From: Candidatus Altimarinota bacterium
GTDB taxonomy: Bacteria > Patescibacteriota > Gracilibacteria > 1-14-2-50-48-13
DNA length: 64,000 nt
Assembly: GCA_046314355.1 (NCBI GenBank)
Contig: JBKBWQ010000001.1
Coordinates: 256,001 to 320,000, forward strand
Direction of reading: 5' to 3'
Numbering within the stretch: the first letter of the stretch is position 1; each line of letters opens with the position of its first letter. The notes beneath the pieces are model-generated. The model searched no databases and was not told the DNA's origin. It saw only the letters and a program-made list of their open reading frames with translations. Positions 35,279 to 39,445 of this stretch are shown here, in pieces. Both the position numbers and the translations under genes were made by a program.

Positions 35279-36469
35279 ATGGAAATACTCTATTTTTTTC
35301 AGGCATGTAAAAGACATCTTAAAGTCATCTTACTTATAAGTCTCCTTGCTGCAGCAATTACAGGTATCTACTGGAGTAAGTTTGTAGCACCTGATTTCAA
35401 ATCAACAATCTTTTTCTCCACTGTTACAAAGGTAGATAATGCCCGAACAACAGAGAGATATGATCCATTTTCATACGCTCAGTCTGCTGATAGCTTTGCA
35501 GAAGGTATGCTTGGATGGTTTAGAAATCCGAACTTCTTTGTATATATGAAGGAACATGTACCTGCAGCAGCGAATCTGCGGCTTGATAGAATGTACCAGA
35601 TCCGAAAACAGGAAAAACAGAATCTGAATATTACTTTTCAGGTAGAAACAAGAGCGCTTGCGGAAGATCTCCAGGAAGCAACTATGAAGTATCTTCGTGA
35701 GCAAATTGCTAATATCAATACACAGTCAAACACTACTTACGATATTATTAATGAGACTTTTAATATCACCGAAGTAAAATACAATACTCTCCTTGTTACA
35801 AGCGTAGTCTTTTTCTCACTCTTTCTACTTCTCACTCTCTTCTTCCTTCTTTGGGAAATCTTTAGAGGTATAGCAAGCGTCAGAGAGCAGGTGGAGGAAA
35901 TTTTGGGCACTACAGCGCTTGATACGGTACACGGCACTAAAGCTGACCTGGGATTCATAGCAAACTATGTAGCAAAGCAGGGAAGTCATGTGGCAATAGG
36001 CGGCGTCGGAAAATCCTATCCGGTATATTTCAAAAAAATATCTGAATATATTGCAAACACTTTAGGTAAAGAAACTATCGTAGTAGATGTAGATCTCAAG
36101 AATAGAACACTTGCAAAATCTTTTGGTCTCTCAGAGCATATGAAAAAGATGAAAGGTATTACGGATTTTGATGAGAAAACTGCTGATATCAGCAAGGTAA
36201 GTCTACCGATAAAGAAAGAGAGTTCATTATTAAAATTTATTGGTGCTGGAACAGGGAATATACCTCACTATGCTTTTCTTGAAAAAAATCTTCCTGAGAA
36301 TGCAAAAATATTACTTCATATGGAACTGCCTAAGGATACTCACATCTTCCAGATGAAGGATCTCTCCCTTGTACTCTTTGTACAGCTCGGTGTGACAAAA
36401 CTTCTTGATCTGAAGAGAATTAAGAAACTGATAGGTGACACACCAGTAGGAGTAGTGATTGTTGAGTAA
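35279..36469 (+). CDS. Wzz/Wzc-like polysaccharide co-polymerase with degenerate BY-kinase-like C-terminal domain
   Basis: Two TM helices around an extracellular loop, EQVEEILG linker, VDVDLKN (Walker A'), terminal VGVVI; no Tyr cluster. Confidence 0.7.
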   Translation: MEILYFFQACKRHLKVILLISLLAAAITGIYWSKFVAPDFKSTIFFSTVTKVDNARTTERYDPFSYAQSADSFAEGMLGWFRNPNFFVYMKEHVPAAANLRLDRMYQIRKQEKQNLNITFQVETRALAEDLQEATMKYLREQIANINTQSNTTYDIINETFNITEVKYNTLLVTSVVFFSLFLLLTLFFLLWEIFRGIASVREQVEEILGTTALDTVHGTKADLGFIANYVAKQGSHVAIGGVGKSYPVYFKKISEYIANTLGKETIVVDVDLKNRTLAKSFGLSEHMKKMKGITDFDEKTADISKVSLPIKKESSLLKFIGAGTGNIPHYAFLEKNLPENAKILLHMELPKDTHIFQMKDLSLVLFVQLGVTKLLDLKRIKKLIGDTPVGVVIVE

Positions 36470-36525
36470 GAAGAAAATAAAGTTTAATTAGCTAGAGTTC
36501 TGAATATAACATTCAGCGAATACAG

Positions 36526-36559
36526 AGAATACAGTAACAATATCCAGTTACTGTATTCT
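36526..36559 (+). terminator. 13-bp inverted repeat closing the infB-GT4-Wzz unit
   Basis: agaatacagtaac-N8-gttactgtattct then tt. Confidence 0.6.
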
Positions 36560-36570
36560 TTATAAAGAAT

Positions 36571-36598
36571 TTGACAAAAATATAAAAAGACGTAAAAT
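36571..36598 (+). promoter_or_regulatory. Sigma70-type promoter
   Basis: TTGACA-N16-TAAAAT. Confidence 0.65.
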
Positions 36599-36608
36599 AC
36601 CCACAAGC

Positions 36609-36670
36609 TTAATCACAAAAAAGGGGTACGTGGATTCACGTATTCCAGATCCGTAGGGTCTAGTGATTGA
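36609..36670 (+). ncRNA. Candidate three-way-junction cis-regulatory RNA in a 5' UTR
   Basis: P1 ttaatcac/gtgattga; P2 ggggtacgtg-gatt-cacgtattcc; P3 agatcc-gta-gggtct; all non-Watson-Crick pairs are G-U on the + strand. Confidence 0.55.
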
Positions 36671-36708
36671 AGTGAATATGTTATTTGAAAATTTGGAGGA
36701 TTAGGAAA

Positions 36709-38184
36709 ATGAAGAAAGAAATAATTTTGAGAAATCTCAAAAGAATTGTTCAGGTAAAAAATGAAATATTTTTTACACAAGATCTAAAAAAACTATCTGT
36801 AAAATTGGATGAAAAAGAGCTTAATGAAGCTCTTATCTCTGACCTAGACGTGACAGTCGAACTGTTTGATAGAATCGGTACACCAGAAATGAGAAGTAAA
36901 CTACTGTCTCATTTTATGTTACATGCACCTTCAGAGAAACTTTTTGATCTCATACTTTCACATCATGGCTTTGATTTGACTGAAAGAGTTTCAAACAATA
37001 TTTTTGATAAAAATGTTCCTTGGAATGATTTTTTCAATTATATTGCTGGAAATGTATCTATGTTGGAAAAAGTCTTTAAATTGATGATGGATAATTCCTG
37101 GCAAAGTACACTTCCATTCATCACTAAAAACTCTAATCTCTATGGAGCATTTGAGATATGTGATGACTGTATGATAGCTTTTTACTTTGATGTAAAAGAT
37201 GAGGCAGAGATTGATAATTATAATATTGAGCTGATCTCGTTGGTAAATTTAGTCAACATGCAACTAACTGGGAAGGAAGAATATCAAGCTTTTGTAAATA
37301 AATTATATGATAACTTGTATACTCTTATTAGACAAATTAGTCCTGAAGGAGACCGTAGCGATGACTTATTTACATATCATTTAAAAGACTACTTAAGACT
37401 TGTACCATTTGATAAACAAAGAGGAGATGCGTATCCAGTCGTCTGGTGTTCCGATTATCTTACTCTCATTTATCAGCTTTACAGTTTAGTGGTTTCCTTA
37501 GAAAGAGAAAATAAGAATGAACTCGCAACTCTTTTAGAAGGATCCTTACAAGGCTTTAATAGCATGAGCATTAAAGATTTCCCTTTATACGACTTTTGTC
37601 ATGTTCTACGCTACTGTGAAGAACATGACAAAGATACAGGAAAGAAAGTGATGTCTATAATCAAGCATATAACACTTCAGTGCATTCTGGCAGATATGTT
37701 GATACCGAGAAATAAAATTTTTTCTCAGTATCAATCTTATATAGGTTCCTATGATGAGAAAAAATTATACTTAGAGTCTCTTCTAAATGAATTTAGTTCA
37801 AAAATTCATTATTTTGACTCTAAAAGTGAGGAGTACATCCCATTTGTGGAGCAAGTGATTCTTGCTGCATATGATGATGCCAGGGTGGTACCTTATCTTT
37901 CAGGATGTGAGGATGAGTATGCGATCTTTTTAGCTTGTGTGCCTGAAACATTTTATTCTGAGGAAGATGAAACTGAGTATGAAGATGTAAAGCTCAATAA
38001 TTTCGGAGATAACCCTGTAGTAGAATGGACAGGTAGAATGAATACAAGCAAAATATCACTTTACTTTCTGGATAAAGTTTTTAAGGTTGAAGAACCGAGA
38101 ACCTTAACTAATACTACAGTAGATATTTTCATGCTACTAACTAGACGTGCTATAAAAAGACAAAAAGAAAAAGCCCCTTTCTAA
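36709..38184 (+). CDS. Orphan acidic helical protein (491 aa)
   Basis: ATG 36709 preceded by GGAGG; own promoter and terminator; no recognisable motif. Confidence 0.85.
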   Translation: MKKEIILRNLKRIVQVKNEIFFTQDLKKLSVKLDEKELNEALISDLDVTVELFDRIGTPEMRSKLLSHFMLHAPSEKLFDLILSHHGFDLTERVSNNIFDKNVPWNDFFNYIAGNVSMLEKVFKLMMDNSWQSTLPFITKNSNLYGAFEICDDCMIAFYFDVKDEAEIDNYNIELISLVNLVNMQLTGKEEYQAFVNKLYDNLYTLIRQISPEGDRSDDLFTYHLKDYLRLVPFDKQRGDAYPVVWCSDYLTLIYQLYSLVVSLERENKNELATLLEGSLQGFNSMSIKDFPLYDFCHVLRYCEEHDKDTGKKVMSIIKHITLQCILADMLIPRNKIFSQYQSYIGSYDEKKLYLESLLNEFSSKIHYFDSKSEEYIPFVEQVILAAYDDARVVPYLSGCEDEYAIFLACVPETFYSEEDETEYEDVKLNNFGDNPVVEWTGRMNTSKISLYFLDKVFKVEEPRTLTNTTVDIFMLLTRRAIKRQKEKAPF

Positions 38185-38201
38185 ATCCTCCAAGTTTACA
38201 C

Positions 38202-38232
38202 AAAGAGCCTAATAAAATAGGCTCTTTTTTTT
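38202..38232. terminator. Intrinsic terminator between the orphan gene and tyrS
   Basis: aaagagccta-ataaaa-taggctctttttttt. Confidence 0.85.
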
Positions 38233-38263
38233 TCGTCAGAAATCAACTGAGATCAATTAAGGT

Positions 38264-39445
38264 TTATTTCACCAAATACAAATACTTCCTCTTTCCTACC
38301 TTCAGCAATTGCTTAGTATCTGAAAGCACAATCAAATGATCATATGCAGTGATTTTTTCTCCATCAAGGGTGATACCTCCCTGATCTATAAGTCTCTTTG
38401 CCTCTCCCTTCGAAGATAGAAGCTGATACTGCATAATAACATCCAGAAGAGCAATACTATCTTGTGCTACGTGTGCTTCTTCTACGTCTGTCGGGATCTC
38501 ACCCTTTGAGAATACATTCATAAACTCACCAGCCTCTCTCTCTCCATCCTCTGCAGAATGGTACATCGTGACGAGCTCCTTAGCGAGCATGATCTTTGCA
38601 TCTCTCGGGTTTAATCCTGCAAGTAGATCTGCCTCAATCTTTTTGATATCTTCCATACTTTTATCCGTACAAAGGATGAAGTAGCGGATAATAAGTTCAT
38701 CCTTCATACTCATTGTCTTACCGAACATGTCCTTTGGAGTATCAAGAAGGTTAATACCATTACCATATGATTTACTCATTTTTCTTCCGTCTGTACCTTC
38801 AAGTAATTCAAAGGTAAGTACATTTTGCGGTACCTGTTCAAAGGCTTCCTGAAGCACTCGACCTGCCAGTATATTAAATAGCTGATCATCTCCTCCAAGT
38901 TCTACGTCTGCTTTTATCGCAACAGAATCATACCCCTGCATGAGAGGATACATAAATTCATGTAAGCCAATAGGCTTGCTCGCTTCAAACCTTTTCCAGT
39001 AATTATCCCGTTCAAGCATCTGGGCAACGGTAAAATGCTTTGCAAGATTTGCTACATCCATAAAATTAAGTTTTCCAAGCCATTCACTATTATATCTGAT
39101 TGCAATCTTTGAGAGATCCAAAATCTTTCCAACCTGTTCTTTCCATGATCTCATATTTTCCTCAACTTGTTTCTGCTCTAACTGTACTCGCATAGAGTCT
39201 TTGTCAGAAGTATCTCCAATCATTCCTGTAGCATCACCGACAATAAAAATAATATCATGACCAAGATCCTGAAATCTTTTTAGTGCACGGATTGCAATTG
39301 CATGTCCAATGTGAAGATTTGCACCTGTTGGATCACATCCAAGCTTGATAGTTAATTTTTTACCTGAACGAAGCTTTTTCTCGAGATCTTCTTTTACAAT
39401 ACAATGTGCAACACCTCTCGTAAGTAGTTCTGATATGGGATCCAT
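38264..39445 (-). CDS. tyrS: Tyrosine--tRNA ligase
   Basis: LGCDPTGANLHIGH, YPLMQGYD, KMSKS, C-terminal S4 domain VGKRK. Confidence 0.98.
   Translation of the reverse strand: MDPISELLTRGVAHCIVKEDLEKKLRSGKKLTIKLGCDPTGANLHIGHAIAIRALKRFQDLGHDIIFIVGDATGMIGDTSDKDSMRVQLEQKQVEENMRSWKEQVGKILDLSKIAIRYNSEWLGKLNFMDVANLAKHFTVAQMLERDNYWKRFEASKPIGLHEFMYPLMQGYDSVAIKADVELGGDDQLFNILAGRVLQEAFEQVPQNVLTFELLEGTDGRKMSKSYGNGINLLDTPKDMFGKTMSMKDELIIRYFILCTDKSMEDIKKIEADLLAGLNPRDAKIMLAKELVTMYHSAEDGEREAGEFMNVFSKGEIPTDVEEAHVAQDSIALLDVIMQYQLLSSKGEAKRLIDQGGITLDGEKITAYDHLIVLSDTKQLLKVGKRKYLYLVK

Follow-up and report, generated by a model that had tools for sequence, protein, structure and literature searches.

In the genome of Candidatus Altimarinota bacterium (assembly GCA_046314355.1) we found a gene for an orphan protein of 491 amino acids (aa) whose Shine-Dalgarno (SD) sequence is complementary, over a stretch of 20 bases, to the region around the gene's own stop codon. 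Two further genes of the same genome, which code for other orphan proteins and were found through a 5' leader that they share with the first, repeat the arrangement, one of them with compensatory changes in both arms and the other more weakly. The first gene lies in a window of 64,000 nucleotides (nt), C1:256001-320000 of the 1.69-Mb assembly (38% GC), C1 being contig JBKBWQ010000001.1; the assembly is 98% complete, and positions given below without a contig name are those of the window. We call the orphan gene of the window, with the parts of its transcript, unit A, and the two units with paralogous leaders elsewhere in the genome units B and C. Unit A is probably a real self-regulating mRNA, and we give an even chance to the explanation that a helix between the two ends of the same message masks the SD in the finished transcript, the known case closest to it being icaR of Staphylococcus aureus.

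The 5' arm of unit A, AAATTTGGAGGATTAGGAAA (36689-36708, plus strand), contains the SD GGAGG at 36695-36699 and ends one base before the ATG at 36709, where the open reading frame (ORF) begins (P0001, 36709-38184, plus strand, GC 32.5%). The 3' arm, TTTCTAAATCCTCCAAGTTT (38178-38197, plus strand), spans the TAA stop (38182-38184) together with the last two sense codons before it and the anti-SD CCTCC (38187-38191) behind it. When the two arms are laid antiparallel, 19 of the 20 positions pair, 17 of them as Watson-Crick pairs and two as G-U pairs (U36692-G38194 and G36704-U38182), with a single A/A mismatch at 36703/38183; a re-reading of the sequence confirmed this count, given by an earlier, sequence-only reading of the window (the first-pass annotation), exactly. 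Weaker pairs continue outward to 36686 and 38200, and the top inverted repeat of the region consists of these same arms, extended to 23 nt (36686-36708 with 38178-38200, 83% complementary). The first-pass annotation had also argued that the G-U pairs favor pairing between RNAs over DNA repeats. It was correct in that both of the two transition mismatches are G-U on the sense strand, but the argument is weak, as this would happen by chance in one case out of four.

Such a strong duplex is rare in the genome. We called 1365 ORFs under translation table 11 (coding density is 88%, and TAA, TAG and TGA all serve as stops), and for 1364 of them RNAduplex was run on the 5' region from -25 to +5 against the 3' region from 15 nt before the stop to 20 nt after it. 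In this narrow window unit A, at -24.2 kcal/mol, ranks first, and its energy is reached by only two of 39,971 random pairings between the 5' and 3' regions of different genes, which amounts to about 0.07 expected cases per genome. The 5' arm of unit A reaches -24.2 kcal/mol with none of the other 1363 3' ends, nor does any of the other 1363 5' ends reach it with the 3' arm of unit A, the best being -22.9. Apart from this, own and random energies are alike (the 1%, 5% and 50% points are -17.1, -13.9 and -7.4 kcal/mol for own pairs and -17.2, -13.8 and -7.5 for random ones), and since the two distributions can be superimposed, there is no general genome-wide trend.

The data set that contains the locus consists of assembled contigs from one sample, a hot-spring metagenome that is probably the source. 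Two further contigs of the same depth in the source metagenome matched only 36619-36701 of unit A and then diverged past the SD, and a BLAST search against the genome gave leader copies at C1:27904-28041 (unit B) and C1:1255371-1255510 (unit C). The copies are 79% identical over 141-147 nt, from the -35 box through the start codon, and all three fold alike into a three-way junction with stems P1 (10 bp), P2 (10 bp) and P3 (6 bp). In unit A the predicted leader occupies 36607-36673 on the plus strand, where 36607-36616 pairs with 36663-36673 (P1), 36623-36632 with 36637-36646 (P2) and 36647-36652 with 36656-36661 (P3). RNAalifold, applied to the three genomic copies, returned 26 pairs, two of which are kept by changes on both sides and five of which are changed on one side only, while the P3 pair 52/62 is broken in one of the three copies. 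Between leader and SD runs a linker, GAATATGTTATTTGA (36674-36688, plus strand), which is conserved in the alignments and predicted to be single-stranded.

Since no protein homologs exist for the orphan genes, we used the three leader units as a covariation test, the first-pass annotation having proposed a search for compensatory changes around homologs. Unit C turned out to have an SD/anti-SD helix of its own, 12 bp long and in compensatory spelling: UUUGGAGAAAAA before its AUG forms 12 perfect pairs with UUUUUCUCCAAA directly after its UGA. Unit C was found via its leader and not via its arms, so that this replication is independent of how the case was picked. The stem of unit C is the longest contiguous Watson-Crick 5'/3' stem among the 1364 ORFs (stems of at least 12 bp occur in random pairings at a frequency of 3.3e-4), and unit A, with 10 contiguous pairs, is in the top five by the same measure. 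In spelling, GGAGG-AUU paired with AAU-CCUCC in unit A corresponds to GGAGA-AAAA paired with UUUU-UCUCC in unit C, so that three positions are changed on both sides, and in a cross table of arms the best partner for A is its own, as it is for C.

When only stems that cover the SD core are considered, among the 552 SD-bearing ORFs, unit C ranks first, unit A falls within the top three and unit B within the top 13, with random frequencies of 7.5e-5, 4.5e-4 and 0.025, respectively (combining B and C by Fisher's method, calculated by hand, yields about 3e-5), and three ORFs have such stems of at least 10 bp where 0.25 would be expected (18 of about 40,000 random pairs); these SD-overlap statistics, like the motif counts that follow, were picked after the data had been seen. 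A [CU]CUCC pentamer stands between stop and terminator in all three units, compared with 75 of the 1364 ORFs (5.5%), and in each unit it is the sole such pentamer of the transcript: the ORFs of A and B lack any CTCC tetramer, and that of C lacks any [CT]CTCC pentamer. In unit B the word is UCCUCC; it lies 22-36 nt past the stop and forms part of the loop of a small hairpin that immediately precedes the terminator. Outside the window we also noted a fourth monocistronic gene without a Pfam family (L111:1254-1670, minus strand, corresponding to C1:710252-710669; 138 aa from a doubtful TTG start). Here GAAGUCAGGAA, at or near the predicted 5' end, matches UUCCUGACUUC, just before the terminator, perfectly over 11 bp, which is the second-longest SD-overlapping 5'/3' stem in the genome; this gene has no copy of the leader.

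Both arms of unit A lie inside one predicted monocistronic transcript of about 1.63 kb (1632 nt), whose ends are predicted rather than mapped. It is preceded by a sigma-70-type promoter (36571-36598, plus strand; TTGACA-16 nt-TAAAAT, an 11/12 match to the consensus), with a transcription start predicted near 36605, and the gene upstream has a terminator-like hairpin of its own at 36521-36564. At the other end an intrinsic terminator (38202-38236, plus strand), made of a 10-bp stem (called at 38202-38227) and a T run, separates the orphan gene from its convergent downstream neighbor, tyrS. The anti-SD CCTCC is therefore 3' of the stop, 5' of the terminator and within the same predicted transcript as the SD that it would pair with, as in an icaR-type message. 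The -35 box and the 16-nt spacing are shared by all three units, and each unit has its own intrinsic terminator.

Folding of the predicted transcripts is in line with the pairing. The minimum free energy structure of the full 1632-nt transcript of unit A includes the helix, with pair probabilities of 0.99-1.0 over 36691-36700 and 0.5-0.7 over the distal five pairs, and in the full fold of unit C the core pairs at about 1.0, with the U of the AUG paired to the A of the UGA at 0.94. In local folds the 3' arms stay unpaired, and a strong terminator hairpin follows each of them closely. The SD of unit A is predicted to be unpaired at 46% in a nascent RNA of 150 nt and at 31% in one of 400 nt, and in folds of the full transcript at 50-70 C the unpaired probability of the SD core is at most 0.0015. 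Between 37 C and 70 C the isolated duplex weakens from -24 to -10 kcal/mol for unit A and from -15 to -6.5 kcal/mol for unit C. The GC content of rRNA is linked to growth temperature, and that of the 16S rRNA gene, only about 50% here, suggests a moderate one. The proposal of the first-pass annotation that the arms pair at the RNA level and hide the SD is thus supported by the shared transcription unit, by the minimum free energy helix and by the covariation in unit C.

Several observations weigh against this interpretation, and some of them bear on whether the complementarity could have arisen by chance and lack any function, given that any CCUCC near a gene end will pair with any SD and that very many windows were screened at the outset. 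If the 3' window is widened to 60 nt, so that terminator stems are included, unit A has p = 1.3e-3 per gene (0.13% of random pairs), or about 1.7 genes expected per genome at its energy. With this wide-window null, and with so many windows screened at the first stage, unit A as a single case would be neither significant nor convincing. By the same wide-window energy units C (p 0.095) and B (p 0.37) also fall short of significance, and the two together give 0.15. The helix of unit B, 10 bp with one bulge and -11.4 kcal/mol, is not significant alone and reaches a pair probability of only about 0.17 in the full fold. Start codons were refined by SD strength, which is a crude procedure, and the composition upstream of genes has a 3-base periodicity, which makes the null distributions approximate. 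Coding sequences show no clear depletion of anti-SD-like words (the ratio is 0.92 for CCTCC and 1.13 for TCTCC), and from these mixed ratios a strong genome-wide SD/anti-SD constraint is not evident; nor, as the superimposed energies indicate, is there a genome-wide tendency toward pairing. As for the fold, a transcript of unit A that is cut just before the 3' arm leaves the SD unpaired at only 7%; since the SD finds some partner even without the 3' arm, a paired SD in the fold of a long RNA is not specific, and the fold is supportive rather than proof. Finally, the covariation comes from three paralogous units in one assembly, the leader and the proteins having no homologs outside this genome.

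Nonetheless, chance alone would have to account for the fact that unit C, reached through its leader, has the longest 5'/3' stem of the genome, centered on the SD, for the excess of SD-covering stems of at least 10 bp, and for the compensatory nature of the changes between A and C. We consider chance complementarity quite unlikely for these reasons. Complementarity to the SD goes beyond chance and is accompanied by compensatory change, as in an icaR-type element, although it is weaker by the wide window and weak in unit B. The interpretation as an RNA pairing is supported by an independent paralogous replicate, within a computational analysis of one assembly, and the regulatory outcome is a proposal.

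Under the masking explanation, the three single-gene units share one plan, in which a strong promoter and the structured leader are followed by an open linker that carries a strong SD, by an orphan ORF unrelated to the other two, by an anti-SD between stop and terminator, and by the terminator. The 3' arm would be transcribed last, just before the terminator, and the SD would be free throughout synthesis of the RNA. On the completed transcript the 3' arm would zip onto the SD, over 20 bp in A, 12 bp in C and 10 bp with a bulge in B, and the resulting helix would loop the mRNA and block binding of the 30S subunit; a helix of about 20 bp may also be a substrate for RNase III, whose gene is present in the genome. 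We infer formation of the helix in vivo, repression rather than stabilization, and a link to termination. Since the 3' arm overlaps the stop in A and abuts it in C, a terminating ribosome, given the known size of its footprint, would have to melt the helix, and ongoing translation of A and C would transiently re-open the SD. The net effect may be repression, but going by the sequence it may also be stabilization of the hbs kind or re-initiation.

The helix could be real and have another job, either protecting the ends of the message from RNase Y/J and 3' exonucleases, as in hbs of Bacillus subtilis, or bringing the stop beside the start for re-initiation on the same mRNA. Unit A looks as if it were built for high expression, with its 11/12 promoter, its structured domain at the very 5' end and its strong SD; stop and start are only a few nt apart across the helix in A and C, as the pair between AUG and UGA in C illustrates, and genes for RNase Y and PNPase are present. 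In hbs, as described in PMC5737220, a 14-bp pairing that links the 5' and 3' untranslated regions (UTRs) modulates RNase Y cleavage in the leader. In that account, however, the hbs pairing overlaps the RNase Y site, whereas the helix here covers the SD itself, and anti-SD insertions in B. subtilis are reported to reduce expression rather than raise it (preprint PMC12697547). The arm of unit B, 22-36 nt past the stop, would also be beyond the reach of a terminating ribosome. Protection or re-initiation as the job of the helix is in our view unlikely.

A more elaborate variant, which we consider very unlikely, would make the three units a family of self-circularizing mRNAs. The stop would be held beside the start, pioneer ribosomes would load co-transcriptionally, and each terminating ribosome would free the SD for the next initiation. 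The message would thus be active only as long as translation goes on, and once traffic lapses it would be locked irreversibly and might be cut by RNase III. If true, this would be a bacterial closed loop, a translation-memory switch for lineage-specific orphan genes in a bacterium belonging to the candidate phyla radiation.

For inverted repeats of 12-23 bp that flank a whole ORF, as they do in A and C, one may also consider an explanation at the level of DNA: an inverton that flips the ORF relative to a fixed promoter and leader and so turns it on or off, or the ends of a gene cassette. The genome encodes three serine and three tyrosine recombinase homologs, and, as read from the sequences, the inverted state would have no start codon after the SD and would thus be "off". 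Against this, none of the three units has a recombinase gene next to it, the nearest match being about 28 kb away, and the arms are imperfect, with mismatches of the G-U type. The 5' arm is not at the edge of the repeated promoter-leader module but about 140 nt within it. In every unit the transcript contains both arms and the SD forms the 5' arm, features that only an RNA mechanism requires. No strand-changing joint was seen in the contigs of the one sample, although contigs drop rare variants. An inversion or cassette is accordingly highly improbable. The 3' arm was also considered as a decayed inverted copy of the leader, and this was rejected, there being by eye no similarity beyond the arms.

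Pairing between RNAs need not be in cis. The 3' arm and terminator might be released as a small RNA derived from the 3' UTR, whose C-rich seed would act in trans on the SDs of all three leader-family members. With the SD region of B, the 3' arm of A forms a duplex of -17.9 kcal/mol, compared with -11.4 for B's own arm, and the CUCCUCC of unit B is displayed in the loop of its small pre-terminator hairpin; staphylococcal small RNAs with UCCC-type seeds are described, and the icaR pairing itself may be in cis or in trans according to PMC3868564. Yet A and C pair best with their own partners, the arm of A overlaps the coding end, and there is no evidence of processing, all of which makes release of such a small RNA exceedingly improbable. 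Masking in cis remains the explanation that we favor.

Turning to the leader itself, a covariance model (R1) built from the three copies matches exactly three loci in the genome, at 115-123 bits. Against 150 other related genomes R1 gave nothing convincing: eight of the 150 have matches of 22-28 bits, with E-values per genome of 0.003-0.09, which we judged to be chance. Nothing in the window reached the gathering score of an Rfam 15 family, and at the three leader loci Rfam gave no match even with the threshold at E <= 1. Pattern scans of public collections of genomes, metagenomes and viral contigs returned no leader copies, and a looser leader pattern returned four viral contigs, none of which matches R1. 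As far as its predicted structure and these searches go, the three-way junction is a previously undescribed structured leader in front of three unrelated orphan genes. CsrA, considered as a candidate for binding the leader, was not found in the 98% complete genome.

Some smaller features of the leader region were also noted. The P2 hairpin of unit A, read on the opposite strand together with the complement of the A-rich junction, is called as a terminator-like element by the scan (36627-36642, minus strand), and unit C shows the same minus-strand pseudo-terminator from P2 (L009 2937-2958). An ATG conserved in the linker opens a mini-ORF in all three units (36675-36704 in the window, L008 3011-3022 and L009 2990-3001), without a clear SD upstream of it. 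It reads ATG-NNN-TTT-TGA, three codons, in units B and C, and through a one-base difference it has eight codons in unit A, where it stops at a TAG inside the 5' arm.

The neighbors of the three units include IF-2, a glycosyltransferase, tyrS, an aminoacyl-tRNA synthetase, PNPase, a TrwB-like ATPase and an M23 peptidase. Directly 5' of the orphan gene of unit A stands a gene for a 396-aa protein (35279-36469, plus strand) with no Pfam, PADLOC or PHROG match, which itself comes after genes for a glycosyltransferase of the GT4 family and IF-2. About 300 nt upstream of the promoter of unit B there is a weak match to a T-box leader (L011:1282-1430, minus strand; 37 bits against a gathering score of 93, E 1.7e-5), preceding a class II aminoacyl-tRNA synthetase gene that is divergent from unit B. 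Unit C is flanked by a TrwB/TraG-like type IV coupling ATPase (886 aa; L009:105-2765, minus strand) and by an M23 peptidase with SLH domains (732 aa; L009:4209-6407, plus strand). The contigs also contain one of 404 nt and low depth (5.8x, compared with 19x) that joins sequence like 36178-36198 to sequence like 38264-38288 with 230 other letters in between. It may come from a related strain that does not have the orphan gene, or it may be an unrelated match, the matching flanks being only 21-25 nt long.

The proteins give little hint of what would be regulated. The three ORFs, of 491, 141 and 337 aa, are unrelated to one another. That of unit A is at the 4.6th percentile of ORF GC content with ordinary codon usage, and its product is acidic (isoelectric point 4.9) and soluble, with a grand average of hydropathy of -0.26. 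It has no Pfam, PADLOC or PHROG match and no defense, phage or toxin signal in them. A word-indexed search of 5.8 billion clusters returned only the protein itself, no homolog was found in any of 60 related genomes, and the proteins of units B and C likewise have no Pfam family and no homolog in the same cluster collection. In a full HMMER scan that covered 1.84 billion representatives, the unit A query matched only itself and one other sequence (P0002), a translated tandem repeat of 1169 aa (residues 366-409 matched in 14 stretches), which we judged to be a low-complexity artefact and rejected as a relative. The tyrS contig of the closest relative (G003, 65% identity) has different neighbors and is uninformative for synteny. 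Going solely by the best named matches to the TyrRS, which are 50-52% identical, the organism is probably a Peregrinibacteria-like member of the candidate phyla radiation. An AlphaFold2 model from the single sequence was unusable, with a mean predicted local distance difference test score of 40, and the ESM Atlas gave only sub-threshold helical-repeat look-alikes (best feature score 0.83, template modeling score at most 0.42). The suggestion of the first-pass annotation that the protein is possibly toxic or defensive thus finds no backing in the family matches, in the homology searches or in the low-confidence fold, and its idea that the protein would be made only co-transcriptionally or after 3' trimming is pure inference.

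To our knowledge, direct pairing between the 3' end and the SD of the same mRNA has been documented for very few natural bacterial genes, with icaR as the standard case. According to a 2025 preprint (PMC12697547), bacteria generally avoid distal anti-SD words because of the gene silencing that these cause. The natural genes described here appear, judging by sequence, to use an anti-SD word at the stop codon, with compensatory change within one genome, and the three orphan genes, although unrelated, seem to belong to one regulon. Should this be confirmed, it would be a compact and portable design that leaves the fate of the message to the bases transcribed last, and it would offer a first look at post-transcriptional control in an uncultivated lineage with small genomes.

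In icaR, as reported in PMC3868564, pairing of the 3'-UTR motif UCCCCUG with the SD blocks the initiation complex and makes a site for RNase III. The resemblance is close, since in both cases a pyrimidine-rich anti-SD past the stop of the same mRNA pairs, or is predicted to pair, directly with the SD region, folding of the whole mRNA predicts the helix, some of whose pairs are G-U, an RNase III gene is present, and the ORF codes for an ordinary protein and not for a small toxin (PMC3868564). The differences lie in layout. The icaR motif is described as belonging to a long 3' UTR, at a distance of 260 nt from the stop and with about 40 nt paired, whereas there is almost no 3' UTR here and the arm overlaps the stop (A) or abuts it (C), directly before the terminator; the SD is a canonical GGAGG here and UAGGGGG in icaR (PMC3868564). 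Unlike icaR, moreover, the feature recurs in three units with a common structured leader, and it is known here from sequence alone.

The first-pass annotation had compared unit A with the type I toxin mRNA hok, and had noted that the ORFs silenced by such fold-backs are tiny. The comparison is a loose one. What hok/Sok shares with the units is a long-distance 5'-3' pairing that keeps the full-length mRNA inert, as is proposed here, and an inhibitory 3' element that is made last and so leaves a co-transcriptional window. In the description of PMC9841398, the tac/fbi 5'-3' stem of hok does not itself hold an SD, a separate upstream box holds the SD of mok, and the message must be processed at its 3' end and refold before it is active, whereas the 3' arm here pairs with the SD itself. 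The ORFs of hok-type systems are small membrane toxins with an antisense RNA, whereas those described here code for soluble proteins of 141-491 aa; at unit A no ORF or gene on the antisense strand is conspicuous, an antisense RNA not having been specifically searched for. Restricting fold-backs of this kind to tiny ORFs also overlooks icaR (PMC3868564) and hbs (PMC5737220). The units resemble hbs, as it is presented in PMC5737220, in their long-range pairing between UTRs (the 14 bp of hbs), in being monocistronic, and in having a structured leader, a strong SD and RNase Y in the same genome, and they differ from it in that the SD is the center of the helix.

A further parallel to the pairing comes from B. 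subtilis reporters, in which anti-SD-like 8-mers placed hundreds of nt from the ribosome-binding site, including in the 3' UTR, are reported to pair with that site, promote decay, lower the mRNA level and inhibit translation by blocking initiation (preprint PMC12697547). Those words were engineered and natural genes are reported to avoid them, whereas the matches here belong to natural genes, extend over 12-20 bp and have a fixed position, which suggests that they are used and not avoided. Masking of an SD by 5'/3' pairing of the icaR type is known already, and what would be new here is its tie to a new structured leader of three orphan genes.

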